DNA from: Bacillota bacterium
Lineage (GTDB): Bacteria; Bacillota; Sulfobacillia; RBS10-35; JAJYVN01
Direction: 5' to 3'
Assembly: GCA_021803205.1 (NCBI GenBank)
Contig: JAJZMB010000162.1
Coordinates: forward strand, 20,718-84,717
Length of the DNA: 64,000 nt
In this document: piece after piece, positions 9,871-35,191 of the stretch
How the letters are laid out: each line of letters begins with the position of its first letter
Numbering within the stretch: position 1 is the stretch's first letter
Made by a program: the position numbers and the translations under genes
Notes under the pieces: generated by a model
The model's input: only the letters and a program-made list of their open reading frames with translations
Databases searched by the model: none
Told to the model about the DNA's origin: nothing

Positions 9871-9871
9871 C

Positions 9872-11419
9872 ATGCGGCTTCTGGGTGTGTCTGCCATGAG
9901 AGAACTCGACCGCCGCGCGGTCGAGGAGCACGGGTTGTCCGTCAGCGCACTGATGGAGGTGGCCGGGGCGGCCTTGGCCCGCGAAGCGGCAGAGCTGCGC
10001 CGCGGCGCCGGTCTCAGCGGCCCGGCGGTCCTGCTCTGCGGCGGGGGCAACAACGGCGGCGACGGTCTGGTGGCGGCGCGCCACCTTGTGGCTGCGGGTA
10101 TACCGGCGCAGGTGCTGCTCTGGGCGGATCCCGCCCGCACGGGTCCGGTGCCGCAGGCCAATCTGCGATTGCTCGGCCCCGCTCGCGTTCCGGTGATCGA
10201 ACACCTCAGCCCGGCGGATGCCGGGCGCATCTGCCGCGAGGCGGGGGTCATTGTGGATTGCCTTTTGGGCACCGGATTCCGGGGAACCGTGCGGGCCCCG
10301 CTGCCGGACATCATTGCCGCGGCTAACGGCGCGGGCGCACCGGTGCTGGCGGCGGACATTCCTTCGGGTTTGTCGGGCGAACTGGGCTTACCGCCCGACG
10401 GCCCGTGCATCCGAGCCCGGCGCACGCTCTGCTTCGGTGCGGTGAAGGCAGGGTTGTTTTGCGAGCCCGGGCGGGGATACGCCGGTGAAGTGCGCCTGGA
10501 AGCGCTGGGCATCCCCGAGGCCGCATGGGCAGGCCTTGATGTCGTTCGCGGGCTGGCCGCTTCGGGGGTGGCCTCGCTCCTGCCGGTGCGCCGCGGTGCA
10601 GGACACAAGGGCACCTACGGTACCGTGCTGGCGCTGGCGGGTGCGGCGGGCTTTACCGGAGCGGCCGCCATGTGTGCGGTTGCGGCCCTCCGGGCCGGTG
10701 CCGGACTCTGCCAGGTGGCGTGCCCGGCAGCGGTGGCCGACGTGGTGGCGGCGAAGGTGACCGAGGCCACCATCCGTCCCTTGCCGGGAGATGCGCAGGG
10801 CGGGCTGGCGGAGTCCGCCGCCGATCGCCTGCCCGCCCTGGTGGGGGGCGCGGAGTCGGTGGTGGCTGGGCCGGGTCTGGGCCGCGGACCGGGTGTGCGG
10901 GCCGTCGTGACCCGGCTCCTCCAGATCTATGGCGGGCCGGTGGTGCTGGACGCCGACGCCCTGAACGCAGTGGAACTGCAAACCATTCGCGAGGCCGCCG
11001 GCCGTGTGATCCTCACGCCTCATCCCGGCGAGGCCGGGCGTCTGCTGCGCTGCTCCACGGGCGAGGTTCAGGCGGACCGGCAGGCCGCGGTGCGGCGGCT
11101 GGCCGTTGAGGGTCGCTGTGTCGCCGTGCTCAAGGGAGCCGGCACGCTGATCGCCGCCGCTGACGGGCCGATCTGGTGCAACCCCACCGGCAACGACGGC
11201 ATGGGCACGGGTGGGAGCGGTGACGTGCTGGCGGGATTGATAGCGGGGCTCTGTGCCGAGGGCGCGGAACCGCAGGCAGCAGCTACGGCGGGCGTATACA
11301 TCCACGGGCTGGCCGGCGACCTGGCCGCAGAGGAACTCGGGCGTAGGGCGATGCTCGCCGGGGACATCCTCCGCCACTTCTCAGGGGCATTCCGTATGCT
11401 ACTCGGGGCTGGGGCATAG
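9872..11419 (+). CDS. nnr: bifunctional NAD(P)H-hydrate epimerase / ADP-dependent dehydratase
   Basis: The N-terminal YjeF_N domain (LLCGGGNNGGDGLVAARHL) is present. The C-terminal carbohydrate-kinase-like domain (GHKGTYGTVLALAG ... GGSGDVLAG) is present. The ATG at 9872 is 1 nt after the acpS stop. Confidence 0.8.
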   Translation: MRLLGVSAMRELDRRAVEEHGLSVSALMEVAGAALAREAAELRRGAGLSGPAVLLCGGGNNGGDGLVAARHLVAAGIPAQVLLWADPARTGPVPQANLRLLGPARVPVIEHLSPADAGRICREAGVIVDCLLGTGFRGTVRAPLPDIIAAANGAGAPVLAADIPSGLSGELGLPPDGPCIRARRTLCFGAVKAGLFCEPGRGYAGEVRLEALGIPEAAWAGLDVVRGLAASGVASLLPVRRGAGHKGTYGTVLALAGAAGFTGAAAMCAVAALRAGAGLCQVACPAAVADVVAAKVTEATIRPLPGDAQGGLAESAADRLPALVGGAESVVAGPGLGRGPGVRAVVTRLLQIYGGPVVLDADALNAVELQTIREAAGRVILTPHPGEAGRLLRCSTGEVQADRQAAVRRLAVEGRCVAVLKGAGTLIAAADGPIWCNPTGNDGMGTGGSGDVLAGLIAGLCAEGAEPQAAATAGVYIHGLAGDLAAEELGRRAMLAGDILRHFSGAFRMLLGAGA

Positions 11420-11719
11420 GCGCGGGCGCGGATGCCGCCGTCCGTCCGACACCGGATGGCTGCGGCTGGCGGGGCCCGCCAAGTGCGGTGAGGTGTCTCG
11501 GGCGCGTGGGGCGGACGCCTCCTTCACCGGTGGGCGGGAAGCGCCGGCGGTTGGAGCCGGACCACCCCACGGTCCTCGTCAACCCAGACTTCCACGCCTG
11601 CCGCCCCGCCCTGCCGCACCGAGAACAGAAACGTGCCGGTGGTGTGCTGCCCGTCCTGGGCGGATACAGTACCCGCACTCCGGAGCCCGGGGATCCGGGG
11701 TGGTCGCTCCAGTCACCCT

Positions 11720-11888
11720 TAGTACTGTCCTCCGCACGGGCAGCAGGTGGCGCCGGCGACGGCCAAGAACATCTGATCATAGGCCGGTGAGGCGGCCCCA
11801 AAGGGTGTGAACGGACGGGCAGGCCCGATTCGCCGCTTCATGAGTCCCCACCTCGGCCCAGGCCTTGCCAGTGCGGAGGACAGTATTG
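11720..11888 (-). repeat. MITE-like repeat element, copy 2 (inverted orientation)
   Basis: It is the reverse complement of the 2608-2794 element: agtactgtcctccgcacgggcag ... ttgccagtgcggaggacagtattggg, with the same conserved core. Confidence 0.8.
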
Positions 11889-12132
11889 GGAGATGAGCCG
11901 GCAATGAAGAGTCGCGGCTCCAGGGCGGCGGCGCAGCAACGGGCAGCTGGAGTTTGCCTGGGCGGTACTGCCGGAGCCCAGGGACCCAGCAAAGTCGTCC
12001 AGTGGGCCAAGCGGCGGGGGGCCCGGACGGTCGTGACCCACAAGCGCTGGTGGTGAGCACCCGCCCTGACGTGACTTTGCCGGGACCCTGTGTCGGAGCC
12101 CACCAGGGCTTTTCTTTTTCCGCCAAATCGGG

Positions 12133-12220
12133 TACGTCTAGGACGGCGATACAAAAGTCGGTCTCCACAGCGGCCGTGAACCGTGGACCCTTGGGGGACA
12201 AGGGATTCGGAGCAGTGGCC
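12133..12220 (+). repeat. conserved approximately 90 nt intergenic motif, copy B (immediately 5' of the DUF929-VKOR operon)
   Basis: agtcggtctccacagcggccgtgaaccgtggacccttgggggacaagggattcggagcagtggcc is about 80% identical to 19967-20031. The upstream 25 nt are also related. It is followed by the small hairpin gcaaaag-cgga-cttttgc. Confidence 0.6.
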
Positions 12221-12283
12221 TCGCAAAAGCGGACTTTTGCGTGCGGCGAACTCGCCGTGATCGTCTTATCAGGGGGAATTTCG

Positions 12284-13204
12284 GTGCCGCAGAAACCAAA
12301 ATACGCCGCGCGCCGTGGCGGTGCCGGTTACCGAGCGGCTCAGCGACGCGGCTCGAACAACACAGTGTGGTGGATGTTTGGGGCGGTGGCGCTCGCGATC
12401 CTGGTTCTGGTCGTGGTGCGGCTGCTGGTCCCGAGCGGAGGCCCCGGTTCCTCCCAGGACGGCAAGCCGGTGGCCGCTGACGTCCTGATGAACCTGACCA
12501 GCGTGCCGTTATCGGCCTTCGATAGCGTGGGCATCGGTCCCGCCAAGGGCAGCGGGAAGGTCATCACACCCGCCGGTGGAACAACGACGCTTTGGAAGGA
12601 CTCCACCGGCAAGCCGGTTGTCATGTACGTCGGCGCCGAATACTGTCCGTATTGCGCAGCCACGCGCTGGGCACTCGTGACCGGGCTGTCGCGCTTCGGC
12701 ACGTTCAAGGGGTTGGAGTACATGACGTCCAGTCCGACCGACGTGTATCCGGACACGCCGACCTTCACCTTCGTCCATGCGACCTACAGCAGTCCCTACG
12801 TGGACTTCCAGCCCGTCGAGGAGCAGGGGGAGATCATCGGACAGCCTCTGCAGAGCCTGAACGCCCAGCAATCCGCCTACCGGGCCAAGTACGAAGCCGC
12901 GCCGTATTTCCCCGGTGCCGTCCCGGGTCAATACGATTATCCCTTTGTCGACGTCGCCAACCGCTACCTGTGGGAGGGGGCGTTCTATAGTCCGTCGGTC
13001 CTGGCGGGTCAGCTCTGGCCAGCCATTTCCCAGGCCGTGCACGCCGGGAAGGCCCCGGTGGCGCAGAGCGTTCTCGGGGGCGCGAACGTCCTGTCGGCGG
13101 CGATCTGTGCGGTGGACGGCGGGCGGCCCGCCCCGGTCTGCCAGAGCAGCGGCGTCAAGGCCGCCGCGACAACGCTGCCGAAGGCGCAGGGCGCCGGGGC
13201 ATGA
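12284..13204 (+). CDS. DUF929-family extracytoplasmic thioredoxin-like protein, membrane-anchored
   Basis: GTG start with the RBS AGGGGGA. An N-terminal TM helix is present. The CxxC motif [12 protein letters not shown] is present. Confidence 0.6.
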
Positions 13205-13623
13205 CCACGGGTTGGACCCGGGCGCGGCTGATCCTCAGCGGGCTGGGGCTCCTGGTCTCGGCGTATCTGACGGCTGTCCACTACATCACGGCGGTGCCGC
13301 TGGCGTGTCCCTCCACCGGCATCATCGACTGTGCCCAGGTCCTGACCAGCCCGCAGTCGGTGGTGCTCGGCCTGCCCCTCGGTGTTTGGGGGATGGCGTG
13401 GTTTTTGGTGCTGGGTCTCCTGGCCGCCCGAGCCGGGCGTGCGGGCGCGACCGGCTCGGGCGCTGTGCTGGCCAGGCGGGTATGGGTGGCCCTGGGCGCA
13501 GTCGCCGTCGTCTACTTCATATATTTGGAGCTCCTGGTCATCGGGCGTATCTGCATCTGGTGCACGTCCGTCCACCTGATCGTCCTGGCATTATTCGCCA
13601 TGGAGGCATCCGGCGTGGAGTGA
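13201..13623 (+). CDS. vitamin K epoxide reductase (VKOR) family membrane protein
   Basis: It is a four-TM protein. The active-site CxxC ([10 protein letters not shown]) and the loop Cys pair ([13 protein letters not shown]) are present. It overlaps the DUF929 stop (ATGA). Confidence 0.65.
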
Positions 13624-13856
13624 GGCCGGTCTTCCAGAGCCCGACCACACCGAGCCGCGCAAGTGCCGGTTCGGGTGCGCGCGGCTTGGTGCTGGGGCGA
13701 GTCGCCTGTGGTGGCGCCTGCGCTGGGTGGTGATCTGCGCCGCCGTGCTGATGGCGGGGTTGCATGCATGGGTGGGTACGGCAGTGTTCTCCGCGCCCGG
13801 GTGGGATATTCGACTCTCCGTCCGGTGGCAGCGTCCGGACTGTGGGCGGGTGAGCG

Positions 13857-15041
13857 GTGTCGGGGGCGTTTCGGCTTATGGTGGGCGGGAACTTCGGGAG
13901 GAATCGGCCGGTGCGGGCCACTTGGGCAGAAGTTGACCTTGGTCGCCTGCGGCACAATGTGCGAGCGCTTCGCGGATGTCTTGCGTCGGGCGCCGGCCTG
14001 ATGGCGGTGGTGAAGGCCGACGGTTACGGGCACGGTGCCCTGTCCGCGGCCCGCGCCGCGCTGGAAGCCGGGGCGGCGGCGCTCGGGGTGGCGTTGCTTG
14101 AGGAGGGACAAGCCCTCCGCCGTGCCGGCGTGACCGCGCGCATCCTGGTCATGGGCTGGACACCTGCCGCACGGGCCGCGGATGTGGTGGAGGCCGACCT
14201 GGACCAGGCGGTCTTTGACACCGACGATGCCCGGGCCTTCGCTGCGGCCGCGCGTGTCGCGCGACGGAAGGTGCGGCTGCACGCCAAGGTCGATACGGGC
14301 ATGGGGCGCCTGGGCTGGTCGGCGCGGGAGCCTGCGTCGCAGGCGGCGGCGGTGGATGCCGTCACGAACGTGGCCCGCTTGGATGGCGTGGAATTAGCGG
14401 GGATTTTCACCCACTTCGCGGGGGCGGACGAACCGATCCTGGACGGGGCACGGCGCCAACTGGCCGCATTTCGGGCGGTGCTGCAGGGCCTTGAGGCGGC
14501 AGGGGTCCAGCCGGGATGGCGACACTGCGCGAACACCGCCGCCATCCTGCGGCTCCCCGAGGCGCACTTCGACCTGTGTCGCGCCGGGATCGGCATGTAC
14601 GGTTACGTGCCTTCGCTCCATGTCCCCGACCCGGGACTGGCGCCCGTCCTCTCCTGGTACACGCGCGTGGCCCAGGTCAGGGAACTGGCCCCCGGAGACG
14701 CGGTGAGCTACAACGGCACCTATGTCGCCCAGTCACGAGAACGTGTGGCCACCCTCCCCGTCGGTTACGCGGACGGTTTCCCGCGGGCCCTGACCAACCG
14801 TGGGCAGGTCCTCGTCGGGGGCCACCCGGCGCCGCTGCGCGGCCGGGTCTGCATGGATCAGGTCATCGTATCGCTCCAGGGGGAGGGTGTCGTCCGGCAA
14901 GGCGACCCGGTGGTGATTCTCGGAGAGCAGGGTGGCCGGGCGCAGTGGGCGGCGGATGTGGCCGATCGGGTGGGCACCATCAGTTACGACATCCTCTGCG
15001 GCATCAGCCCGCGGGTGCCGCGGGTGTACCGTGGGGCGTGA
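13857..15041 (+). CDS. alr: alanine racemase
   Basis: The PLP lysine region AVVKADGYGHG is present. The C-terminal YxxGxxxxG / CMDQ motifs are present. Confidence 0.8.
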   Translation: MSGAFRLMVGGNFGRNRPVRATWAEVDLGRLRHNVRALRGCLASGAGLMAVVKADGYGHGALSAARAALEAGAAALGVALLEEGQALRRAGVTARILVMGWTPAARAADVVEADLDQAVFDTDDARAFAAAARVARRKVRLHAKVDTGMGRLGWSAREPASQAAAVDAVTNVARLDGVELAGIFTHFAGADEPILDGARRQLAAFRAVLQGLEAAGVQPGWRHCANTAAILRLPEAHFDLCRAGIGMYGYVPSLHVPDPGLAPVLSWYTRVAQVRELAPGDAVSYNGTYVAQSRERVATLPVGYADGFPRALTNRGQVLVGGHPAPLRGRVCMDQVIVSLQGEGVVRQGDPVVILGEQGGRAQWAADVADRVGTISYDILCGISPRVPRVYRGA

Positions 15042-23769: not shown

Positions 23770-25188
23770 TTACGTGATCGCTGGCAGGATCAGCGTGAAG
23801 CAACTGCCCTGGCCGAGTGCGGTCTCCACCCTGATGGCGCCGCCGTGCGCCCGGGCCAGGAGTTGCGCGATGGAGAGCCCGAGGCCAAAACCGTCCTGCG
23901 CTCGGGAGTGGGCCTCGTCTCCCCGAAAAAATGGTTCAAACAGGTGAGGCACGAACTCGGGTGGTATGCCAGGCCCGTCGTCCCTCACAGAGAGGGAGGG
24001 GGAGGCGTGTCTGTCTTGAGACACACGGACTGTGATGGCGCCCCCCTTCGGCGTGTACTTGAGGGCATTGTCCAAGAGGATCACGACGATCTGCTGCAAG
24101 TGCTCGGGGTCTCCGAATACCTCCACGGGCGACGGAGCATCCAATCGCAGATCCCGGTTTTCGGCCACTACGAGCATCGTTTCGTAAACGCCTCTCGCCA
24201 AGGCCGAGAGATCCATGCGTTCCCAACGGCCACGCTCGGGGCGCTCACCCCGAGCAAGGATGAGCAGCCTCATGGTCATTCGGCGCATGCGGGCGGCCTC
24301 TTCCCGGATCGCGTCCGATGCCTGCTGCGTGACCTCAGCATCCTGCTCCTGCCAGTGCGCCAGCAGTTCCGCGTACCCCTGGATGATAGCCAGCGGGGTG
24401 CGCAGTTCATGTGAGGCTACCGCGATGAACCTTTGTTGCGCGCGGACAGCCTGGGCGATGCGGTCCAGCGCCTGGTTGAGCACAGCCGCGACGTCCCGAA
24501 TCTCATCGGGGGGTCCGCTTTCAGGCAGGCGGGCATCCAGGTTGTGAGCGTCGATGCGGCGAGCCGCGGCAATGATTCCTCGCACCGGGGCCAGGGCCTT
24601 GTTCGCAAGCAGCAGGCCGATGGCGGCCGCCACGCCCGCGCCCCCGACGTCGACCCAGAGCAGAACGCGACGAGCCGCCCGCAGGAAGTCGTCCACCGGT
24701 CCCAGAGATTGGGCGACCTGCACTGCGCCCACCACACTTCCGCGGCGTTGTAACGGCAGGGAGACCCATGCCAACGGCGGCCCCTTGCCCTCCAGGGAGG
24801 GACGCACACCCTGGGCCGGCACGGAGGGAGTTGTGGCCAGGGGCAAGGTACGTCCCTGGAGATTGAGCGAGCGGTTGACGACAGCGCCGGAGTTACTCTC
24901 AACCTGCACGAACTGACCGGATTCTGGTGCCACCAGCACCAGTTCCGCACTGCCCAGGCCCATCTGCACGCGCTCGCCGCCGGACTGTCCCTGTCCCGCC
25001 CCACTGTTGGCGGACACGCCGGAGACGAGCGCGGCGACGGCGGTCGCGCTGTCGGCCACGGAATGGAACGCGTCAGCGGTCAACCGCAGGCGCAGTATCC
25101 CGAGTGCGATGAACGTGCTGCAACCCAGCACGGTCAGGACGGATAGACCGTACCACGTCGTGAGGCGCCATCCGATGCGGCGCTTCAC
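23770..25188 (-). CDS. sensor histidine kinase (TM, HAMP, HisKA, HATPase_c)
   Basis: The H-box VASHELRTPLAIIQGYAELL is present. N, G1 and G2 boxes are present (... GLGLSIAQLLARAHGG). The GTG start overlaps the RR stop (GTGA). Confidence 0.7.
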   Translation of the reverse strand: MKRRIGWRLTTWYGLSVLTVLGCSTFIALGILRLRLTADAFHSVADSATAVAALVSGVSANSGAGQGQSGGERVQMGLGSAELVLVAPESGQFVQVESNSGAVVNRSLNLQGRTLPLATTPSVPAQGVRPSLEGKGPPLAWVSLPLQRRGSVVGAVQVAQSLGPVDDFLRAARRVLLWVDVGGAGVAAAIGLLLANKALAPVRGIIAAARRIDAHNLDARLPESGPPDEIRDVAAVLNQALDRIAQAVRAQQRFIAVASHELRTPLAIIQGYAELLAHWQEQDAEVTQQASDAIREEAARMRRMTMRLLILARGERPERGRWERMDLSALARGVYETMLVVAENRDLRLDAPSPVEVFGDPEHLQQIVVILLDNALKYTPKGGAITVRVSQDRHASPSLSVRDDGPGIPPEFVPHLFEPFFRGDEAHSRAQDGFGLGLSIAQLLARAHGGAIRVETALGQGSCFTLILPAIT

Positions 25189-25940
25189 GGGCAGTCCTCC
25201 CGGAGTACGTACCCGACGCCCCGCACAGTGTGAATCAAGGGGCTGCTCGTCGCACGATCCACCTTCTCGCGGAGTTGTCGAATCATCACGTCGACGATGT
25301 TGCTGGTCCCGCTGTATGCATAGCCCCATACCCGCTCCAAAATCACGTCGCGTGTCATCACTCGGGGTGAATTGTCCATCAGAAAGGCGAGGAGGTCGAA
25401 TTCCCGCCTCGTCAACAAGATGTCCACTCCGTCGCGCGTTGCCGTACGGGCCCGCGGTGCCAGGCGCAGATCGGCGACCTGAAGAACGGGATCGGCGTTG
25501 CCCGCCCGGCGACGGAGGATCGCCCGCATCCTCGCCAGGATCTCTTCGATGTAGAAGGGCTTGGCGATGTAGTCGTCCGCGCCCGCATCCAGCCCGGCGA
25601 CCCGGTCAAGGAGATCTCCCCGGGCCGTGAGCATGATGATGGGCACGTCTGTGGCCGGCGGAGCCGGCTCGAGCGGAAGTGGACCGCATTCGCTCTCGAC
25701 AGGCCCGAAGCGGCCGGAGCGAATGCGGCGGCAGACCTCCATGCCGGTGAGCAGGGGCAGCATGACGTCGAGGATGACCAGCAGCCACCCGCCCTTCGCC
25801 GCGAGTGCCAAACCTTGCCTGCCATCCCGGGCCACGTATACCTCGTATCCGCAATGGGACAGCTCCAACCGCAGCAGATCCGCCAGTCGTCCCTCGTCTT
25901 CGACCACCAGAACGCGCCCGACCACATCTGGAGGCGCCAC
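25185..25940 (-). CDS. OmpR-family response regulator with a receiver-domain insertion
   Basis: The receiver domain (RVLVVEDE ... ILDVMLP) is present. The winged-helix domain (LTRREFDLLAFL ... VRGVGYVL) is present. The GTG start has the RBS GGGAGGGAGG. About 20 extra residues (SGRFGPVESECGPLPLEPAPPATD) are inserted before the PIIMLTA beta-4. Confidence 0.75.
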   Translation of the reverse strand: MAPPDVVGRVLVVEDEGRLADLLRLELSHCGYEVYVARDGRQGLALAAKGGWLLVILDVMLPLLTGMEVCRRIRSGRFGPVESECGPLPLEPAPPATDVPIIMLTARGDLLDRVAGLDAGADDYIAKPFYIEEILARMRAILRRRAGNADPVLQVADLRLAPRARTATRDGVDILLTRREFDLLAFLMDNSPRVMTRDVILERVWGYAYSGTSNIVDVMIRQLREKVDRATSSPLIHTVRGVGYVLREDCP

Positions 25941-26180
25941 TTCAGCACTGCCTCCCTCCCCGAATTCCCGGCCCGGGCAAGAACAAGCGCTCGCACCTCC
26001 GGCTCGGGCCGCCCATTTGTTGAGGCTGTGCCACAATTCCCGGCCGGGGCCGCGACATGGGCACCGAGTTCCATCCTGATGCGGCTTGACCGCCGTCCCG
26101 GCCATCCTGCCACCGGTTGCTGACGGACATGTGACGCACTTCCCGCGTCGCGGATCACATGCACCCCGTGCGGCGACGCG

Positions 26181-27998
26181 TCAGTCGGCCGGTCCGGGCG
26201 CCGTAATGTAGACGAAGTCCCGGGAATCCGGCGACAGGTAGCGACTTCCTGGCCTGACCATGTTCGACATGAGCGCCGTGCCGAGCACTGCCGAGGAGCC
26301 CGGTTGGACTGGACGGTAAAAGTTGAAGGTCACCCAGTAGCTGTTGATGTCCAGTTGCATCGCCCGTCGCACCCCCATCAGGGTGAAGACCCGGGCGAGT
26401 GTGCGCGCCGTGACCGGAACACCAGCCGCGTACACGAGGTTGCCCCGCCCCGTGAGCGCGAGTCCGGACCTCCACACCCGTACCGCGCTACCCACGGTGA
26501 TACCCCAGGCGATACCCTGGTCGACGCCGAGGGTGGCACGCCCATGATCGACCAGCAGGTCCAGGTTCTGCAACAGGCTCCAGGGTGCGGGCGATGCCGG
26601 AATCTCGGTGCCCCAAGTCCCGAGGGCCACCTGATAGGAGCGGTACACCGCGAGCGTAGCGAGTCCCGCGGTGGGCTGCAGGTACCACTGCCCAGCGGCG
26701 CGGAATCCGAATCCGTTATATCGGCCCTGCAACCGCTTGAACCCGCCGTTGAAGGCCGCCAGCAACCGCGACCGGGCCGCCAGCGGCACTTCGCCGGTTC
26801 CGCGGAGGCCGCTCGGCGCTTGCGGGTGCTGCGTGCCGGCGACCAGATGCAGGTGGACGGCTCTGGTGTTGATCCATACCAGATCCACCCGCTCGTAGGG
26901 TCTTGTCGGGTCAGGCAGGACGAAGGTGCGCTCCATCGCCGGCTTTCCTTGTGCTGTCCCGCCGACCGGGACCCACACCCCTTCCCCCGGTGCCTGCGGC
27001 CAGCTCGGTGGTACGCGGAGGGCAGTGGGCCAGGTACTCGAACGCGCACGGCCCGACGCCGACGCTGATGAAGACGGCACGGCACCGGCCGATGTCGCGT
27101 CCCCGAGGACCGGCGCAGCCTGGCGTGCCGGCCTGTGGAACATCGAGTACAGGGTGCGGCGGACAAAGTCGCTGCTGCTGTACCAGAGGTCTTCGGCGAG
27201 AGCGACCGGTCGTGGTCCGAGCGTCCTGCGTACGCCTTCGACCAAGCCGACGAATACGTTGTTTCGGCTCGCGGTGGAGTGAGAAAGTACCAGCAATGGA
27301 GATGACGACACCCACTTGCCCTTGGCCAGGCTTAGCACAGCATTGTGCGGTCCTGCTGCCGGACTGAGCCATGCGACCGATATCTGTACGGCCTTGGACG
27401 GGAGGGTTGCCAGCCGAATCTTCGTAGCGGCCTGTGTCAACATGAAAGTGTGCGGCACGCCGGCCACGCCGCGGCCGACCATCACGGTCTGCGCCTGGGT
27501 GCCGGTTCCCAGCGCGTAGGCCAGATATTGCTGTATCCCGGTCAGGGCCAGCACGGCACCGCCGTGGCCACCAACGCGCTGCGTCGCGGGCCCGAATCGG
27601 GGGAACGCACTGCCCGCTGCGCCAAACCTCACCGCTGCGCCGTACAGCGCCCAAGGACTTCCCGCACGACGGGCAAGGGCCAAGACCTCTGAGGGCGTGC
27701 GTGAGCGACCCATGACCACGACCTCCGGGCGGCCGCGGTCGTTCAGCGCCACCGTTAGGCCCTGTTCCCGCAAGGCGGCTGCGGCGCTGACTACAAACGT
27801 CGGCATAACCGGCAGGACCTGCAACGACGGCCACCACTTGAGCGTCGCCACCACCAGCAGGAACGTAGCGCCAAGCGTGGGGACGAGCCGCCAAGGCCGC
27901 AGCCGCCTGCGTCTGCGCCGCTGTCCACGCCGAGTCGGGCTCGGCAGGTAAGGGATACGGGGCGTTCGCCGCCTGTGCGGGCCGAAATCGGCGTGCAA
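26181..27998 (-). CDS. membrane-anchored protein with a C-terminal phosphodiester glycosidase (NAGPA-like) domain
   Basis: It has an Arg-rich N-terminus followed by a TM helix. The C-terminal region (LAAFNGGFKRLQGRYNGFGFRAAGQWY ... ) resembles the phosphodiester glycosidase family. The N-terminal half is unassigned. Confidence 0.5.
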   Translation of the reverse strand: MHADFGPHRRRTPRIPYLPSPTRRGQRRRRRRLRPWRLVPTLGATFLLVVATLKWWPSLQVLPVMPTFVVSAAAALREQGLTVALNDRGRPEVVVMGRSRTPSEVLALARRAGSPWALYGAAVRFGAAGSAFPRFGPATQRVGGHGGAVLALTGIQQYLAYALGTGTQAQTVMVGRGVAGVPHTFMLTQAATKIRLATLPSKAVQISVAWLSPAAGPHNAVLSLAKGKWVSSSPLLVLSHSTASRNNVFVGLVEGVRRTLGPRPVALAEDLWYSSSDFVRRTLYSMFHRPARQAAPVLGDATSAGAVPSSSASASGRARSSTWPTALRVPPSWPQAPGEGVWVPVGGTAQGKPAMERTFVLPDPTRPYERVDLVWINTRAVHLHLVAGTQHPQAPSGLRGTGEVPLAARSRLLAAFNGGFKRLQGRYNGFGFRAAGQWYLQPTAGLATLAVYRSYQVALGTWGTEIPASPAPWSLLQNLDLLVDHGRATLGVDQGIAWGITVGSAVRVWRSGLALTGRGNLVYAAGVPVTARTLARVFTLMGVRRAMQLDINSYWVTFNFYRPVQPGSSAVLGTALMSNMVRPGSRYLSPDSRDFVYITAPGPAD

Positions 27999-28342
27999 GT
28001 TCCACCCTCCAGATGCGTGGACAGCGCCCGCATTGGACGGGCGACAGTCGGCAGTTCGTAATCAGGGGCTGGCACCAGGCGAAGCGTGCGAAGCCGGTGT
28101 GCCCGCGCCTCATGCCAAGTGCTCAGTCATCCTGAGCGCGCAAGATGAAGTGCGGTTGAAGGGCACATGAAGACAAAATGATTTTACTTGCAACCTCGAC
28201 CGAGCGCTGCGCCCCCAGCGTCGTCCAAGTGTGCGTGCCGCCCGCCAGCCGCAGGCCGAAGTGGGCGGGCGGACCCGAACGGCGGCCGCTTCCCTGGGTT
28301 CTACGCGCACGTCTGCGAGGCCTGGTAGGCAAGGTCAGTCCG

Positions 28343-28384
28343 CCCGCGATCGCTCCGGCGCCTCTGACGCCGGAGCGATCGCGG
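28343..28384 (+). other. perfect 16 bp stem palindrome in the low-GC spacer
   Basis: cccgcgatcgctccggcg-cctctga-cgccggagcgatcgcgg, then ttt. It could be a terminator or a protein-binding palindrome. Confidence 0.35.
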
Positions 28385-28499
28385 TTTCAGCAAAACAACA
28401 CGGCGTATTCATCTCGGTTTCATCCCGCGGGAGGAGACTGAGCGGGCACACCGGACAAATTCGGTCCGTTCGGTGACAACGGAAGGGAGGTGAACGCAG

Positions 28500-28787
28500 A
28501 TGCGATTGCGCGCACTTGCAGCCGCAGGCACCGGCATCCTCCTCGCCAGCGGCATCGCGGCCGCCGTGGCTGCCAGCAGTGGGGGCGTCTTGGCGTCCCC
28601 GACATCACCCGCTCCGCGGCCTCAGACCATAGGGACCGTTGCGGCGTCTCAGCAGAAGGGGTCCGTAGACTCTGGCGGCAACGTCCAGTCCGGCGCCGAC
28701 GTCCAGTCCGGGCCCAACGTGCGCGGTGGCGCTCCCGACGCCACCGAGGGCCACCCGAATCACAAGGACGCTGAAGCGGACGGCTGA
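28500..28787 (+). CDS. small secreted Gly/Ser-rich protein (95 aa)
   Basis: A strong RBS GGAAGGGAGG sits 8 nt upstream of the ATG. The signal peptide is MRLRALAAAGTGILLASGIAAAVAA. The gene lies in the low-GC spacer of the island. Confidence 0.4.
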   Translation: MRLRALAAAGTGILLASGIAAAVAASSGGVLASPTSPAPRPQTIGTVAASQQKGSVDSGGNVQSGADVQSGPNVRGGAPDATEGHPNHKDAEADG

Positions 28788-29401
28788 TCCGCGACGCCCG
28801 AGAGAGCGTCCGCCCGGAGCCCCGCTCGGGGCTCCGGGTTCCCTGGCGAACCGCCCACCAGCGTTGGATTGACGTTAGTCAACCTGCGCTGGCCCTTCAA
28901 GAGCAGCGCGCAGTCGTGTGCGCAAAGCCCCGGTGGAATGCACACACCATTGGAACGCGGGCGCGGGCCAGGGCTTCCCGATGCGTCGATGGTCCAGGGG
29001 CAGATGACCGGAGCAGAGGGTTTGTGTTACGGCTCACGAACTCTTCGGTGGTTCTGACCACGGTGGGTGCAGCCGGCGCCCCTCCGCCGAGGCATGGTGC
29101 CGCTTGGACTTCGCGGGTCCAGGGCAAGGGCTGACGCCCGCTCCGCGCCCTGGAGCCGCACGCGCCCAAGCTGCTTTCGGGATCGGGGCGGAGGGGCGAA
29201 AATCAGTGGCTAGGTCGAGTGAATGAATATCGTTCATCGGCGCCTAGGGTGAGCGCTTACACGGGGGGCAGATGCGCATCCCCGTGAAGGACTGCGGACC
29301 GGTTCACGCTCCCGGGCGGCTGTATTACCCATATCCCCGCCGCTGGTGTGGCTGCGAAGCCCCGCCCCGGCGGAGGGAGGAGCTGGTGTGGCTCCGCAGC
29401 T

Positions 29402-30151
29402 TCAACGCTGCCGGGCCAAGATGTCCTCCGCCGGCGAAACGGCGCGCAGGATCTGCGCGTAGCCGCGGATGGTGCGCGCAATGCGCATCTTGCTTCGTCC
29501 CTCTTTGCGCTCGTAATGCAGTTCCAGTGGCACCTCGACGCAGCGGGCTCCCAACCGGTGGAGCCGCAGGAGGATTTCCGCCATGCAGGCGAAGCCGTCG
29601 GTCGTCACCAGACCGTCGGCCCCGTAACGCGCGACGGCTTCGCGCAGGATGCGTACACGGTAGGCGCGGAAGCCACAAGAGTAGTCTCGCACCCCGGGCA
29701 CCGGGCGCATCAGGCCGAGGAACGCGCTGGCGGCGCGACTGAGGACCTTTCGGTGCCAGGCGAGGCCAAATTCGCGCCCGCCAGGACAATAGCGTGAAGC
29801 GACAACCACGTCCGCCTCCACCGCTGCGGCGCACATCCGTGGTATGAGCGCAGGGTCATGCGTGTCGTCGGCATCCATGGTCACCACCATATCGTCGTCC
29901 GCCAGTGGTCCGGCGGTGATCGCGGAGAGCGCCGTGCGCATGGCGGCACCGAGCCCCCGGTTGGTGCCGTGGCGCACCACCTGCGCGCGGGGGCCGTCGT
30001 GCCATGCTTCCACGCACGCCACCGTCCCGTCGCTCGACCCGTCATCCACGACCAGGACACCGTCCACCACCCCCAGGGCTGCCACGCGGCCAAGCAACCG
30101 CGGCAGCGCCCTCTCTTCGTTGTAGGCGGGGATCACCAGCCATCTCTGCAT
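29402..30151 (-). CDS. family-2 glycosyltransferase, polyprenol-phosphate sugar synthase-like (DPM1/ArnC/GtrB-like)
   Basis: VIPAYNEE is present. The DxD is VVDDGSSDGT. TMDADDTHDP is present. Confidence 0.75.
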   Translation of the reverse strand: MQRWLVIPAYNEERALPRLLGRVAALGVVDGVLVVDDGSSDGTVACVEAWHDGPRAQVVRHGTNRGLGAAMRTALSAITAGPLADDDMVVTMDADDTHDPALIPRMCAAAVEADVVVASRYCPGGREFGLAWHRKVLSRAASAFLGLMRPVPGVRDYSCGFRAYRVRILREAVARYGADGLVTTDGFACMAEILLRLHRLGARCVEVPLELHYERKEGRSKMRIARTIRGYAQILRAVSPAEDILARQR

Positions 30152-30164
30152 TTCATCGCACTCC

Positions 30165-31637
30165 TCAACCCGCTTGTGTGGATACCTTTGCCGGGACGCG
30201 GAGGGCGTAATACATCGCCGGTCCGGCCACCCTCAGCGCAAAGTGGGACCGGACGAAGCGCGCCACGCCCGGGGTGCTGAGCGAACCGACGGGGATGTAA
30301 TAGCGCGCACCCTCGGACATCCAGAGGTGCAACTCGGCCATGGTGAGCTTGCTGGTCCGCCAACCGTGGTGGCGGCTGTAGAAAAGGATGGGCGGATTCT
30401 CGGTTCCCAGAATCACGGTCCCCGGTCCGAGAGCCCGGTGCAGGGCGGTGCCGATGCGGTAGTCCGGCCAGTTCAGCCTGTATAGTTCCCGGAGCGGTCC
30501 CAGTGACGACAGGGGCATGGCGAGTACCAGGCATCCCGCCAGCAGGAGGCGTGCGGCGGGAAGGCGGGCCAGTATCTCCGCCATGCCGACGCCTTCGGCC
30601 AGCGCAAGCCACGGGAGCAGGGGCAGGAGATAATATTCGAAGCGGATGTTCTGGACGACGAGCACGCACCAGAGTAAGAGCGCGCCGCCCCATGCCCAGA
30701 ACCAAGCCTGCCCGCGCAGTCGGGACGACGGCAGCCCGACCGCCAGCGGAACAAGTCCCACTCCGGTGATGGAGGTCTGCACCAGGAAATGGCCCCAGAA
30801 TGCAGCAGCGGCTGGCATGCCGACGTGGAGGTCGGACCGCATCAGAAACGTCAGAATCAGGGTGACGAAGTCGTCTCCCGGACTCACCCGTGATCCTGCG
30901 TACATGGTGTACGCGCCGGTGATCAGGACGGGCGCCACAACCAGCATCCAGGGCGCGAGTCGGTCCCAGCGGCTCCTCTGGAGGGCCAGCAGGAACACGG
31001 CGGGCGCGACCAGCAGGGCCGGCAGCTTGGCCGCCACGGCGAAGATGAAGGCCGCTACGGCCAGCAGGTAGTTGCCCGCACCGCCGCGCGCGGCCCAACG
31101 ATCGGTGGCCCACAGGGCCGCCAGGCTCCCGGCCATCATCGCCGGCTCCGGTTGGAACGCCCGCCCGAAGAAGATGCCCAGCGGCTGCACACTGTACACC
31201 GCAGTGGCCAGGAGGGCGATGCGCGCGCCCATGCGTCGGCGCAGGAACAGCCAGAGAAAGATGAGCGACGCGGCTGAGTAGGCCACGGCCACGCCGTGTA
31301 GCAGCCAGTTGCCGAAGGGGAGCCAGTGGGCGAGGACGGCCACTGTCCAGGGCAGGAACGGTACCTCCAATTGGACGTAGTTCGGACCGGGGCCGTCGTA
31401 GAAGAGTTGCGGCAACAAGCGCAGCCCGTCATGGAGGAAAAACCATGCCTCGCTCGCCGTGTCGGTCTGCCGCCAGTCGGAATCGTCGATCAGCGGCATG
31501 CCCGCATGATAGAGGCGCACCGCCACGAACAGCACCAAGACGACGGCGAACAGCCCACAGACGATCCACTCCGATCGGTCGGGGTGGGCCTCGCCCGGAT
31601 TCCGCTTGCTCCCCGCGACGGCTACCCCCTTGTGCAT
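30165..31637 (-). CDS. GT39/PMT_2-family membrane glycosyltransferase (ArnT / protein-O-mannosyltransferase-like)
   Basis: It is a polytopic protein of about 490 aa. The first periplasmic loop carries an acidic motif (PLIDDSDWRQTD), as in ArnT/PMT. The stop overlaps the GT2 start by 14 nt. The start at 31637 is uncertain; 31688 is an alternative. Confidence 0.6.
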   Translation of the reverse strand: MHKGVAVAGSKRNPGEAHPDRSEWIVCGLFAVVLVLFVAVRLYHAGMPLIDDSDWRQTDTASEAWFFLHDGLRLLPQLFYDGPGPNYVQLEVPFLPWTVAVLAHWLPFGNWLLHGVAVAYSAASLIFLWLFLRRRMGARIALLATAVYSVQPLGIFFGRAFQPEPAMMAGSLAALWATDRWAARGGAGNYLLAVAAFIFAVAAKLPALLVAPAVFLLALQRSRWDRLAPWMLVVAPVLITGAYTMYAGSRVSPGDDFVTLILTFLMRSDLHVGMPAAAAFWGHFLVQTSITGVGLVPLAVGLPSSRLRGQAWFWAWGGALLLWCVLVVQNIRFEYYLLPLLPWLALAEGVGMAEILARLPAARLLLAGCLVLAMPLSSLGPLRELYRLNWPDYRIGTALHRALGPGTVILGTENPPILFYSRHHGWRTSKLTMAELHLWMSEGARYYIPVGSLSTPGVARFVRSHFALRVAGPAMYYALRVPAKVSTQAG

Positions 31638-31857
31638 GCTGCCGTCGGACCGAAACGCCCTCTGCGGTTCCGGCGCGCTCGGGCTCATCCCCTGCCGTTC
31701 ACGCGGTCGCGCACAATGCCCGGTACATTCCAGCGCAAGCATATCGTCTGTCTTGGGGGATCGCCGTGCCCTGGCCGGCGCAGGGTGCCTGAACGGATTC
31801 CCTTGGCGCAGGCCACCGCCGCCGCGTGCTGCCGTGTGGGACCCCCTCCGTGCGCGG

Positions 31858-33375
31858 TCAGCAGACGCGCACCGTCTCCACCCCGAGGAGCTCGCCGAGT
31901 TTGCCGATCTCGTCGGCGACACGGCCGACGCCGAGCGCGACGTGATGGGTCGGGCCCTGGGCACACCAGGCGTTCACGAACTCGGCCGGGCCAAGGGCGA
32001 AGCGCACGCGACTGTTGGTGTTGCCGATCCGCAGTACGGGTCCTGGGAGCGACTCGCCTTCCGCCGTGATGAACCTCAGTCGCCCGTCGCCGGTCTGGGT
32101 GACACCCAGGATCGTGACCGGTCCGGTGCGCACATTGAACTCTACCGATACACCGCGACCCGCCTTGCCGTGGTACAGGCCCAGGCCGCGCAGCCCCGGC
32201 CGCCGATCGGAGATGGCCAGGTGTCCGGGGCCGTCGTGTCCCATCAGCACAAATCCCTCCACGAAGTCCATGGCATAGATCTCGGTGTAACTGCCACCCG
32301 CCCCCAGGCGGTCCAGAATCGTCATCGCCACGCAGTTCTTGAGGTCGCCCTCGCCCGAGCAGGGAATGCCCCTGGCCGTCAGGAGGGAACCCCCGAGGAT
32401 CAGGGCCGCCCCAAGATCCTGGTTGGCCCCGCTGCCATGATAGTAATACGCCAATCCGGTGAGGCCCCTGGATCGGACCAGCCGTTCCATGCCGGCCGCC
32501 ACCCGGGCGGCCCACGCCAGGTCGATCGGAGAGACGCTGGCGTCCATGTCGAACATGCGCCGCGTCAGCGCCAACACATTGTCGCTTTCCGCGGGAGGGG
32601 CCGCAGCCACTTCGGCGGCGAGCTCTTCCATCTCAAGCACCTCCACGTGGAGGCCGAAAACGGCGTGGTGCTGAGTGAAGTCAGAATACATGTCCAGCAT
32701 GCCGGGATACGTGTGACCAAGAAAGCCGATGCGCGCGTCGCGCAGGGAGCGGCGCAGCCCGGCAGCCCGGCACCAGTGGGCGATTTCCGTCCATGCCCGT
32801 TCCCCGTGAGGTCCGATGAGCGTACCGGAGACCACGCGGAAGGCAAGCCCGCAACGGGACAGCGCACCGGAGAGCTCCGGCACGCAGCAGGCGCTGCAGT
32901 GGGCCAACCACTCGGCCGTGTCCGCCCGCCCATAATCGAGTCGGTCGGCCGGCTGAAGGTTCAGCACCAGCACCGGCGCCCCCGCGCGCTGAACAAGAGG
33001 AAGGATCTGGGCGGATGCGGCGTAGGTGGCGACATGGATGACGATGAGGTCCACCCCGGCCGAGGCCAGTTCTTCTCCCGCTGATCGTCCAACCTCGGCG
33101 GTATCCACCATGCCGACGTCGACCACCTCGGCCATCTCGGCGAGGCGGCGGCGGACAATGCCCGCGTACCCGAGCAGCCTTTCCCGCAGACGGGGGAACT
33201 GGGGCCAATAGGCCCGCAGGCCGATGGTGCAGAGGCCGACGACGGGACGTGCCGGACCCGCCAGGCGCCCAAGCGCGGCAAGCGTCGCAGAGACGGCTTC
33301 CAGCCCGGAACCCCCTGCGTCGCGGGGGCTCGGCGGGAGGGGGAGATCGGAACTGTTGCGGCTCACGCTGCTCAC
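31858..33375 (-). CDS. L-arabinose isomerase family protein (AraA-like)
   Basis: GEGDLKNCVAMTILDRLGAGGSYTEIYAMDF ... GHDGPGHL ... GPTHHVALGVG aligns with AraA motifs (GEGDWKTA ... GSHMLEV ... GGAHHTV). Confidence 0.55.
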   Translation of the reverse strand: MSSVSRNSSDLPLPPSPRDAGGSGLEAVSATLAALGRLAGPARPVVGLCTIGLRAYWPQFPRLRERLLGYAGIVRRRLAEMAEVVDVGMVDTAEVGRSAGEELASAGVDLIVIHVATYAASAQILPLVQRAGAPVLVLNLQPADRLDYGRADTAEWLAHCSACCVPELSGALSRCGLAFRVVSGTLIGPHGERAWTEIAHWCRAAGLRRSLRDARIGFLGHTYPGMLDMYSDFTQHHAVFGLHVEVLEMEELAAEVAAAPPAESDNVLALTRRMFDMDASVSPIDLAWAARVAAGMERLVRSRGLTGLAYYYHGSGANQDLGAALILGGSLLTARGIPCSGEGDLKNCVAMTILDRLGAGGSYTEIYAMDFVEGFVLMGHDGPGHLAISDRRPGLRGLGLYHGKAGRGVSVEFNVRTGPVTILGVTQTGDGRLRFITAEGESLPGPVLRIGNTNSRVRFALGPAEFVNAWCAQGPTHHVALGVGRVADEIGKLGELLGVETVRVC

Positions 33376-33873
33376 TCCTCATGGTTGGTGTACCCTGGGA
33401 GAGTCGCGGCGACATCGGCTCGGGACCGGGTCGGTGCCGCAGGTCTCCATCCCGCACGGAGGACAAGGGGACCGTATACGCCAGCCGGTGGCGCAACCCC
33501 CCTGCGGAAGGTCGATGGCGCGGTGCGCGACCTTCAGATGCTCGGCCGTGGACGGAGGGTTCAGGCGAGATCGGTCGCCGCATCCGGCGGCATCGCGGCC
33601 GGATGCGGGTCGTCCTGTGGGCGATCCCCGGGCCGGCCGGGATCCTCGCGCGCGCGACCTTCCTTTCCATACTGCTTGACTTGGTGGGAACCCGGCTGGG
33701 CACCGGAGGAGGTGGGGGCACCGGCCCAGTCCCGGGGGGGGCCGGGCTTGCTTGCCGCCTTGGGGGCCGTCCTGGCGGAAGCCCGTGCACGGGCGGGTGG
33801 GACCCCCGGTCGGGGACGATGCCCCGCTGATCTGCGGCGATGGTGCGCTCCCTCCGGCGTCCCGTCTGCACCG

Positions 33874-33902
33874 TCCACAGAGGTGCCATTTTATGGCATA
33901 AT
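33874..33902 (+). promoter_or_regulatory. candidate sigma-A promoter for tsaD (extended -10)
   Basis: tccaca (-35), a 17 bp spacer, then TGgCATAAT (extended -10). It lies about 220 nt upstream of the tsaD ATG. Confidence 0.35.
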
Positions 33903-34120
33903 ACTTGGGGCGGATCTCGGCCGTCCGGTGGACGGTGGGCGGGGAGCTTGCTTGCCTCGCGCCCGGGGACCCCGGCAAGTGCTCGGCGCGCGCCGGGTGC
34001 GGTGTGCGCCATTGGCGAAGCGGCGGCGGGCGCACCGGCGCCTGTGTGGGGCGGTTGCACGGGGGGGGGAGGGGACGGCCCGGCACTGTTGAGTAACGTG
34101 GGTGGCGGGAGAGGGTATAC

Positions 34121-35191
34121 ATGCGGCCGGTGGGGCGCGGCTTATGTTTGGGCATCGAGACCAGTTGCGATGAGACGGCGGCCGCGGTCGTTGTGGGCGA
34201 CGGAACGGTGCAGAGCAGCGCGGTCGCCAGCCAGGCGCACCTGCATGCGCAGTACGGGGGCGTTGTTCCCGAACTCGCGGCGCGGCACCATGTTGCGGCG
34301 GTGCTGCCGACGGTCGACCGCGCCCTTGAGGATGCGGGCGTGGCTTGGGAGGACCTTGATCTGGTCGCGGTTACGCGCGGGCCGGGGTTGCCGGCGGCGC
34401 TGCTGGTCGGAGTCGCCGCAGCTAAGGCCATCGCGTACGCGCGGGGCCTGCCGCTGGTCGGGGTCAACCACTTGGCGGGACACGTGTACGCCCACGCGCT
34501 GGGCGTCCCGCCCGGCGTGGGGCCCGATCCCCTGCCACGTCCCGCTGTTTGCCTGGTTGTCTCCGGTTCGCATACGGACCTCTGCCTGCTGCCAGCGGAG
34601 GGCGGTTTGACACTCCTGGGGACGACGGTCGACGATGCGGCGGGGGAAGCATTCGATAAGGTAGCCCGCCTCCTCGGCTTGGGCTACCCGGGCGGGCCCG
34701 CCCTGGATCGCCTGGCGGCGGGGGGCGACCCTGCCGCTGTGACCCTGCCGCGGACCCACAGACCGATGGCGGGGCCACGGCGCCCGGATCCGCGCCTGGT
34801 GGCCGGACCGTTCGCGTTCAGCTTCAGCGGTCTCAAGACCGCAGTGGCGACCCGACTGGATAACGGTCCCGACGTACCGCCGGCGGACCTGGCCGCATCA
34901 TTTCAGGCGGCCGTGGTGGACGTCCTGGTTACCAAGACGATGGCGGCCGCGGACGCGTACGGGGTGGGCACCGTACTGGTCGCCGGCGGCGTCGCCGCCA
35001 ACTCGGCCCTGCGCCGCACGCTCCAAGCCGCATGCGCCTCCGGCGGAAGGCAGTCGCGCTTCCCGCCGCCGGACTACTGTACCGACAACGCGGCGATGAT
35101 CGCGATAGCCGGGTGGGTGGCGCACCGGCAGGGTCGAAGGGACGGTTGGGACCTCGACGCCGAGCCCAACCTCCCGCTGCAATTGCCCTGA
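34121..35191 (+). CDS. tsaD: tRNA N6-adenosine threonylcarbamoyltransferase TsaD (Kae1/Gcp)
   Basis: LGIETSCDETAAAVV is present. The metal site HLAGHVYA is present. GPGLPAALLVG is present. The RBS is gggagaggg. Confidence 0.8.
   Translation: MRPVGRGLCLGIETSCDETAAAVVVGDGTVQSSAVASQAHLHAQYGGVVPELAARHHVAAVLPTVDRALEDAGVAWEDLDLVAVTRGPGLPAALLVGVAAAKAIAYARGLPLVGVNHLAGHVYAHALGVPPGVGPDPLPRPAVCLVVSGSHTDLCLLPAEGGLTLLGTTVDDAAGEAFDKVARLLGLGYPGGPALDRLAAGGDPAAVTLPRTHRPMAGPRRPDPRLVAGPFAFSFSGLKTAVATRLDNGPDVPPADLAASFQAAVVDVLVTKTMAAADAYGVGTVLVAGGVAANSALRRTLQAACASGGRQSRFPPPDYCTDNAAMIAIAGWVAHRQGRRDGWDLDAEPNLPLQLP

Follow-up and report, generated by a model that had tools for sequence, protein, structure and literature searches.

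Conserved pairing of a DPM1-type glycosyltransferase with an ArnT-like GT-C enzyme in an uncultured Bacillota: a probable lipid-linked transmembrane glycosylation module

The DNA stretch analysed here (the window) comprises 64,000 nt of a metagenome-assembled genome (MAG) of a Bacillota bacterium (assembly GCA_021803205.1, contig JAJZMB010000162.1, positions 20,718 to 84,717). On its minus strand it carries two co-directional, adjacent genes, the first encoding a polytopic membrane glycosyltransferase with the GT-C fold and the second a family 2 glycosyltransferase (GT2), within a housekeeping region (tsaE/tsaB/rimI, tsaD, recO, glyQS, dnaG, sigA, alr). An earlier reading, made from the letters of the DNA alone (the sequence-only reading), had placed such a pair at these coordinates, and Pfam matches, coding signature and public gene calls all bear this out. 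The pair is a real and ordinary lipid-linked glycosylation module of a common, well-known type, and is probably a transmembrane glycosylation system of several components, of the kind represented by YkcBC of Bacillus subtilis or by GacI/GacL. The coordinates of the relevant features are given in Table 1.

In both open reading frames (ORFs) the G+C content of third codon positions exceeds that of second positions (window average, 69% G+C), and both genes appear among the gene calls of four public assemblies (near-identical MAGs). The ORF of the GT-C spans nt 30165–31964 and the 490-aa protein begins at the ATG at nt 31637, although the start is ambiguous, being called at 490 aa in GCA_027418235.1 versus 507 aa (ATG at nt 31688) in GCA_027418175.1. 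The frame closes with a TGA (nt 30167–30165), while the earliest in-frame start of the GT2 gene is the ATG at nt 30151–30149. Between them lies a non-coding spacer, GGAGTGCGATGAA (nt 30164–30152), with a GGAG Shine-Dalgarno motif directly behind the GT-C stop and 9 nt ahead of the GT2 ATG. The sequence-only reading had the GT-C stop overlapping the GT2 start by 14 nt, where there is actually a gap of 13 nt; the 14 probably stems from subtraction of the coordinates (30165–30151). It had also described the two genes as translationally coupled. Their adjacency is confirmed, and coupling is possible, as a spacing of 13 nt permits either coupled or independent initiation of GT2. In the folded junction RNA the Shine-Dalgarno motif pairs with an upstream CCUCC, but the stability is no greater than that of shuffled sequences (z 0.05), and the fold therefore lends no support to structural coupling. 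Among orthologues, the two gene calls overlap by up to 4 nt or stand up to 45 nt apart, so that co-directional adjacency is conserved while tight spacing is not. A scan of nt 27900–34200 for promoters and terminators gave nothing on the minus strand beyond shuffle expectation, no RNA family was found by an Rfam scan of the whole window, and a distant blastn search of the pair against plasmids returned no match. Immediately downstream of the GT2 stop (nt 29342–29400) there is a 19-nt direct repeat, GCTGGTGTGGCTGCGAAGC, present in two copies 40 nt apart, the second of which is 89% identical.

The GT2 protein matches PF00535 (E = 4.4e-27; 95.5 bits, cutoff 23.3). In a single-sequence search its best match was the Pyrococcus synthase of dolichol-phosphate-linked mannose (Dol-P-Man; 5mlz, 5.5e-16), followed by ArnC and GtrB, and a family profile compared to PDB returned the same three enzymes (PfDPMS, the Pyrococcus synthase, 1.7e-41, 145 bits; ArnC, 5e-23, 85 bits; GtrB, 5e-18, 69 bits), the next-best matches reaching the N-terminal part only. 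The alignments to PfDPMS and ArnC are full-length and cover PxYNE, DDGSxDxT, DAD, (S/C)GFR and GxSK; with hhalign, the match to E. coli ArnC has a probability of 99.3% and takes in the catalytic domain only. The AlphaFold2 (AF2) model (predicted local distance difference test score, pLDDT, 94.3) displays the Rossmann-like alternation of strands and helices of a GT-A fold. Its best Foldseek match is again 5mlz (query template-modelling score, TMq, 0.77; root-mean-square deviation 2.8), and the top 13 matches are all Dol-P-Man synthases (DPMS), ArnC or GtrB. Hydropathy analysis revealed no segment of transmembrane (TM) length, and the protein ends where the TM region of ArnC starts. Among NCBIfam models, that of PpgS is one of the top matches (E = 3.2e-17), while that of PgfS gives a weak, partial match (E = 1.2e-6, residues 5–126). 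The product name assigned by JGI is dolichol-phosphate mannosyltransferase.

Residues P8, N11, E12, D37, G38, S39, D41, T43, D93, D95, H98, P100, G160, R162, K216 and K221 are invariant among relatives of the GT2, and D36 and G218 are nearly so. The same holds (invariant or nearly so) for the motifs PxYNE, DDGSxDxT, N-x-GL, D93-A-D95-x-T-H-x-P and SR, and, in the C-terminal half, for D156-x-x-(C)-G-x-R-x-YR and K216-x-G-x-S-K221. Judged by sequence and model, the protein is a TM-less DPM1-type polyprenyl-phosphate glycosyltransferase, of the DPM1/GacI-like subtype and not of the GtrB/ArnC/CsbB subtype with C-terminal TM helices. Because it matches Dol-P-Man synthase clearly better than ArnC or GtrB, the best guess for its sugar would be a hexose, most likely mannose from GDP-mannose.

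The GT-C protein matches PF13231 (PMT_2; E = 1.6e-9; 38.6 bits, gathering cutoff 26.1). Up to E = 0.01, the only other Pfam match is a weak one to ALG3, with neither PF02366 nor PMT_4TMC (PF16192) detected, and among its relatives PF02366 is carried by only two, both distant (30% and 34% identity). No NCBIfam family matches it, including the ArnT model. An AF2 model based on an alignment of 18 relatives (pLDDT 83.9; predicted template-modelling score 0.86) placed ArnT first in a Foldseek search (5f15, E = 2.8e-8, TMq 0.62; 5ezm, E = 9.8e-8, TMq 0.61), then STT3 and other oligosaccharyltransferase (OST) structures (about 1e-7), AftA, PglB and ALG9. The best PMT structure, 9i5k, ranked 29th (E = 2.3e-4) and 6p25 ranked 33rd. 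On this sequence and model evidence, the protein is an ArnT-like GT-C fold enzyme of the PMT_2 superfamily. Its earlier label, GT39 (PF02366), is unsupported, since PF13231 is the only one of these domains matched and structural matches favour ArnT (2.8e-8) over PMT (2e-4 or worse). Assignment to GT83 (ArnT) was likewise not reached by sequence (hhalign, NCBIfam and PDB searches), the resemblance being one of fold. The protein is not a YfhO or Wzy homologue, as the PMT_2 match and GT-C fold show. With the polyprenyl-phosphate signature complete in GT2, and a PMT_2 family member with the GT-C fold beside it, neither of the two findings that the sequence-only reading had named as fatal to it was made, and the logic proposed there (a polyprenol-phosphate-sugar GT2 serving an extracytoplasmic GT-C) holds.

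Hydropathy and the AF2 helices agree on about 11 TM helices followed by a C-terminal alpha/beta domain of about 100 aa. Between clusters of basic residues (the N-terminus, 133–139, 180–184, 221–226, 306–308 and 358–363) there lie, in alternation, the motifs that are conserved: P48...W55-R56-Q57-x-D59-T60-A61, F157-G-R159-x-F-x-P-E164, K204-L-P and Y335-Y336-x-x-P339. Read by the positive-inside rule, this order would put the C-terminal domain and the conserved residues (D59, R159, E164, K204 and Y335/Y336) outside the membrane, and the predicted helices fit an N-in, C-out topology. The first outer loop contains D51, D52 and D54 as well as D59, which is located within the motif WRQxDTA, and has no DE pair of the type seen in GT39. 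W55, R56, Q57, D59 and T60 are invariant among relatives, and D59 is likely to be the catalytic or metal-binding acid. The WRQxDT sequence was found in 97 of the 147 top family representatives examined, and the family as a whole numbers 1385 representatives at E ≤ 1e-30 and 13225 at E ≤ 1e-3, none of them in PDB. By these sequence features, the GT-C belongs to a large uncharacterised PMT_2 subfamily with WRQxDTA in the first outer loop as its hallmark.

Table 1. Coordinates of the gene pair, its motifs, neighbouring genes and related flagellar loci (window numbering unless a contig label is given)
Feature	Position (nt)	Strand	Evidence or remarks
GT-C fold glycosyltransferase, 490 aa	30165..31637	-	PF13231, AF2, Foldseek, hydropathy
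GT2 polyprenyl-phosphate glycosyltransferase, predicted DPM1 type, 249 aa	29402..30151	-	PF00535, profile vs PDB, AF2, Foldseek
Intergenic spacer, 13 nt, GGAGTGCGATGAA	30152..30164	-	Sequence read and ORF limits
GT-C first outer-loop motif PLIDDSDWRQTDTASEA (residues 48-64)	31446..31496	-	Translation, invariant columns
GT2 DxD metal/nucleotide-sugar motif DADDTHDP (residues 93-100)	29852..29875	-	Translation; aligns with DADLQHPP of PfDPMS
GT2 C-terminal GxSK motif KEGRSK (residues 216-221)	29489..29506	-	Translation; aligns with GESK of PfDPMS and ArnC
Isomerase-like protein, 505 aa, L-arabinose/L-fucose isomerase superfamily	31858-33375	-	170-220 nt upstream of GT-C
605-aa protein, N-terminal TM region, Ser-rich linker (about residues 300-330)	26181-27998	-	Homologues with PF09992
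Response regulator and HAMP histidine kinase	23770-26105	-	After the 605-aa gene, same strand
95-aa protein, signal-peptide-like N-terminus	28500-28787	+	Ser/Thr/Pro/Gly-rich tail, repeated GxxVQSG
Flagellar-cluster loci with clade-B GT-C	L003 8486-15825; L005 7664-15514; L007 26-10215 with L077 6502-10126; L097 6517-17364

The preference of the GT2 for Dol-P-Man synthase raises the question of protein O-mannosylation, in which GT2 would be a Ppm1/DPM1 polyprenyl-phosphate mannose synthase and GT-C a Pmt-like enzyme acting on Ser/Thr-rich secreted or membrane proteins. The GT2 profile strongly favours Dol-P-Man synthase over ArnC and GtrB, the JGI name agrees, the GT-C matches the PMT_2 model, and Ser/Thr/Pro-rich stretches occur in two neighbours, the 95-aa peptide and the 605-aa protein (about residues 300–330). 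Protein glycosylation by GT2/GT-C routes is, moreover, established in streptococci (PMC12041528) and Actinobacteria (PMC5882110). However, neither PF02366 nor PMT_4TMC matches the GT-C, its fold search lists no solved PMT structure above 29th place, the candidate substrates are not conserved beside the pair, and the mannose specificity of the GT2 is only predicted. Taken together, this makes O-mannosylation an unlikely function.

The fold of the GT-C points instead to ArnT, its top structural neighbour, and for the GT2, ArnC comes second among the families. An ArnC/ArnT-like system would modify a glycolipid (lipid A of a diderm Bacillota, or another) and so alter envelope charge or stability, and genes for a two-component system do follow on the same strand, about 4 kb downstream. 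Yet arnA, arnB, arnD and arnE/F are all missing within 10 kb of the pair, no outer-membrane or lipopolysaccharide genes were found among the window proteins scanned, and conservation of the pair does not extend to the two-component system. The GT-C profile, for its part, is not significantly similar to that of E. coli ArnT, and the protein has no NCBIfam ArnT match, while GT2 is nearer to DPMS and is without the C-terminal TM helices of ArnC. Such a role is considered very improbable.

Linkage of the two genes was compared across MAG contigs and lineages (labelled P0007–P0009 and L001–L097). Every close relative is a Bacillota MAG. Orthologues at about 60% identity (lineages P0007, P0008/L002 and P0009) keep the order GT-C then GT2, while paralogues at about 37% GT-C identity (L005, and L077, which apparently runs on into L007) and relatives at about 31% (L008, L009 and L010) have GT2 then GT-C. 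For relatives of the GT2 itself (47–52% identity, other metagenomes), three contexts were checked, and in two of them unrelated PMT_2 genes are adjacent or close by. No conserved third gene was found beside the clade-A pairs, to which the window pair belongs. Because adjacency survives at 31–60% GT-C identity and in both gene orders, the pairing is more than chance, and this supports a functional partnership.

The two could nonetheless be neighbours and not partners, with the GT2 acting on a soluble or cytoplasmic acceptor (for example as a GpgS-like compatible-solute synthase) and the donor of the GT-C made elsewhere. The GT2 does lack a TM helix, glucosyl-3-phosphoglycerate synthases are second-tier neighbours in its fold search and give a weak partial NCBIfam match, and two orthologous GT-Cs have no GT2 next to them. 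The GpgS match, however, covers the N-terminal half only (E = 5e-5), and the GpgS-like role was rejected. The alignments to DPMS and ArnC run the whole length, the C-terminal GxSK region included, and adjacency to a GT-C is kept in both orders over the range of identities given above. This explanation is hardly credible.

As a partnership, the pair would operate in three steps. The peripheral, TM-less GT2, for which the searches and model agree on a family suited to this step, would load polyprenyl phosphate, at the cytoplasmic face, with a sugar taken from a nucleotide sugar. A flippase, presumably encoded more than 10 kb from the pair, would then move the lipid-linked sugar to the outer face, where the ArnT-like GT-C would pass it to an extracytoplasmic acceptor, with D59 as the putative catalytic or metal acid and K204 and R159 as candidates for binding the lipid phosphate. 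This architecture fits the published scheme of a cytoplasmic GT-A enzyme combined with a GT-C (PMC8035078, Fig. 2b, Tables 1-2). The same review lists GtlA/B, GttA/B, CsdC/D, CsdE/F, GtsA/C, GacI/L and YkcC/B as GT2/PMT_2 pairs of Firmicutes, and its Table 1 shows that the flippase is frequently encoded elsewhere in known systems (PMC8035078). The pair may not be exclusive, as the GT2 may also supply paralogous GT-Cs elsewhere in the genome.

Several results weigh against this transmembrane system. Within 10 kb of the pair there is neither an annotated flippase (GtrA/GtcA, Wzx, MATE, ArnE/F) nor an annotated small GacJ-like membrane partner, and in two clade-A orthologues, L001 and L095, no GT2 lies next to the GT-C. 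The GT2 misses NCBIfam equivalog cutoffs widely (ArnC, PpgS, AglJ, PgfS), scoring 64 against 529 for ArnC and 62.7 against 370 for PpgS. Comparison of the GT-C with all PDB chains, by single sequence or by an 18-sequence profile, gave chance matches only, and hhalign of its profile with E. coli ArnT was not significant (probability 0.6%, E = 0.089). As the acceptor, a cell-wall glycopolymer is the tentative choice; a Ser/Thr-rich surface or membrane protein is possible but somewhat doubtful, and a glycolipid improbable. Protein acceptors of GT2/GT-C pairs have been established in streptococci, where they are Ser/Thr-rich disordered regions (PMC12041528), and in Actinobacteria (PMC5882110).

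The closest parallels in gene order are the B. subtilis pairs YkcB/YkcC and YkoS/YkoT, in which, as here, a PMT_2 GT-C gene is directly upstream of that for a C55-P-sugar GT2 (PMC8035078, Tables 1-2). Neither YkcB/YkcC nor the window pair has a flippase encoded alongside. YkcC, a GT2 of the GtrB/CsbB type, carries TM helices at its C-terminus, in contrast to the TM-less DPM1-type GT2 of the window (249 aa), and the likeness to YkcB/YkcC was drawn from gene order and domains. In this spore-former, the sugars and targets of YkcBC and YkoST are still unknown (PMC11898649). The GacI/GacJ/GacK/GacL system of Streptococcus pyogenes, which adds the GlcNAc side chain of the group A carbohydrate, resembles the window pair in joining a TM-less cytoplasmic GT-A to a PMT_2 GT-C (the type b scheme of PMC8035078). 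It differs in having a GacJ-like activator and a Wzx-type flippase, neither of which is found near the window pair, and the latter lies outside any polysaccharide cluster. In the streptococcal GtrB/PgtC2 and Pgf systems, a Firmicute GT2 and GT-C carry out extracytoplasmic protein glycosylation (PMC12041528). The match of the window GT2 to the PgfS model is, however, weak and partial, and a protein acceptor is only conjectured here, although the Ser-rich linkers in the window neighbours recall the Ser/Thr-rich acceptor regions of streptococci. The sequence-only reading regarded a module of this type as unusual in a Firmicute, which is overstated given the GT2/PMT_2 pairs documented in Bacillus, Listeria, Lactococcus and Streptococcus (PMC8035078).

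Other systems share the principle. Actinobacterial Ppm1/Pmt and eukaryotic DPM1/PMT also combine a DPM1-type donor synthase with a GT-C that uses a lipid donor (PMC5882110), but the window GT-C is without PF02366/PMT_4TMC and its fold is nearer to ArnT and OST than to PMTs. ArnC/ArnT (GT2 plus GT83, lipid A aminoarabinose) is similar in the ArnT fold (TMq 0.62) and the aligned ArnC catalytic domain, and dissimilar in that the window pair has no ArnT sequence similarity, no arn operon nearby, and a GT2 without the two C-terminal TM helices of ArnC. In Streptomyces, ppm1 and pmt are unlinked, whereas the window genes are adjacent. Mycobacterium tuberculosis provides a further example of a short polyprenyl-phosphate-sugar GT2 serving a GT-C, PpgS (Rv3631) with Rv3779, which place galactosamine on arabinogalactan; the window GT2 falls far below the equivalog cutoff of PpgS (62.7 against 370). 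PpgS works with a small membrane protein, Rv3632, no counterpart of which was seen at the window locus.

The sugars that GT2 plus GT-C modules attach to teichoic acids, wall polysaccharides, lipid A and surface proteins influence phage sensitivity, tolerance to antibiotics and the stability of the envelope. What is new to the catalogue is the combination, in an uncultured, thermophile-like Bacillota, of a TM-less DPM1-type synthase with a WRQxDTA member of PMT_2 (a group of more than 1000 clusters at 50% identity); by itself, this is routine annotation. Identification of the acceptor would give a function to a widespread orphan GT-C subfamily, and the import would be greater if the flagellar-locus paralogues described next add sugars to parts of the flagellum by a route outside the cytoplasm.

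The lead of greatest interest comes from beyond the window, from the paralogous GT-Cs, sometimes with a GT2, that occur in flagellin loci of related MAGs. These clade-B proteins (38–41% identical to the window GT-C) are encoded in a conserved cluster of late flagellar genes with the order DUF815 AAA ATPase, [GT2], GT-C, [second PMT_2], flagellin (about 590 aa), FliS, FliD, GNAT, CsrA, in which bracketed genes are not always present: GT2 is found only in L005 and L077, and the second PMT_2 in L097. In L097 the DUF815 AAA ATPase gene overlaps that of the GT-C by 4 nt. A lipid-donor GT-C in a bacterial flagellin locus is unexpected because the known glycosylation of flagellin is cytoplasmic. No valid precedent emerged when the literature was searched for GT-C enzymes acting in flagellin glycosylation, the sole lipid-carrier paper returned being a retracted one.

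A third type of PMT_2 gene connects the two kinds of loci. Its two examples (L082, nt 3–1235; L097, nt 10253–11587) are 63% identical to each other, without detectable similarity to the window GT-C; the first is directly upstream of a clade-A pair, the second between the clade-B GT-C and flagellin. Since this gene moves between clade-A and flagellar loci, it suggests that one GT2 supplies several GT-Cs. In the fullest form of this idea, the GT2 of these high-GC Bacillota would be the single donor synthase for up to three GT-Cs, two of them (the clade-B paralogue and the third PMT_2 type) in the flagellin/fliS/fliD/csrA locus, and the window pair would be the non-flagellar branch. This is a long shot. 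If true, it would mean an extracytoplasmic lipid-donor route acting on flagellar or surface proteins, in the archaeal or actinobacterial style, which has not been described for bacterial flagella, and the window pair would be a DPM1-type O-glycosylation system using a GT-C other than GT39.

Other gene contexts offer weak leads to the acceptor. A convergent gene for a 727-aa Wzy_C protein (O-antigen ligase or O-oligosaccharyltransferase-like; L079, nt 12087–14270, minus strand) flanks the pair in the P0007 lineage, where a 560-aa GDSL lipase, additional GT2 genes, a DegT aminotransferase and a polysaccharide deacetylase are also near. This is a cell-surface glycan neighbourhood, unlike that of the window. 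In the relatives at about 31% identity (L008, nt 7554–12145; L009, nt 2983–6634; L010, nt 3537–9140), from MAGs of spore-forming Bacillota with about 50% G+C, the pair is located between spmA/spmB and rluB, and in L010 the sporulation gene YtfJ is also upstream. The synteny around this site extends widely and so may reflect mere relatedness. L010 is titled Desulfobacteria, but its gene content resembles that of a spore-forming Firmicute.

Within the window, the isomerase-like gene, the 605-aa protein gene, the 95-aa peptide gene and the two-component system adjoin the pair only in near-identical assemblies. The sequence-only reading had put forward the first three (as isomerase, phosphodiester glycosidase (PDG)-domain protein and secreted peptide) as candidate partners or substrates, but they are absent from every orthologous locus outside those assemblies. 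The isomerase-like protein gives weak matches to the sulfoquinovose isomerase SftI (58 bits, cutoff 700) and to L-arabinose isomerase. Neither the 605-aa protein nor the 95-aa peptide belongs to an NCBIfam family, and the former has no Pfam match even at E = 10; its PDG label derives solely from homologues (38–57% identity) that carry the phosphodiester glycosidase domain PF09992. These homologues and its Ser-rich linker make the 605-aa protein a further weak lead to the acceptor. The 95-aa ORF, seen only in near-identical assemblies, has a weak codon-position G+C signal (0.72/0.64/0.77). A public gene call of 218 aa (nt 33379–34035, minus strand) is probably not a gene, its codon-position G+C being flat (0.70/0.73/0.74) and its translation rich in Arg and Pro; with this call dismissed, the stretch from the isomerase-like gene to tsaD (about 740 bp) has no recognised feature and no Rfam match. 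The divergent intergenic region between the 605-aa and 95-aa genes contains a perfect 17-nt inverted repeat, CCGCGATCGCTCCGGCG (7 nt) CGCCGGAGCGATCGCGG (nt 28344–28384), which could be an operator or a hairpin.

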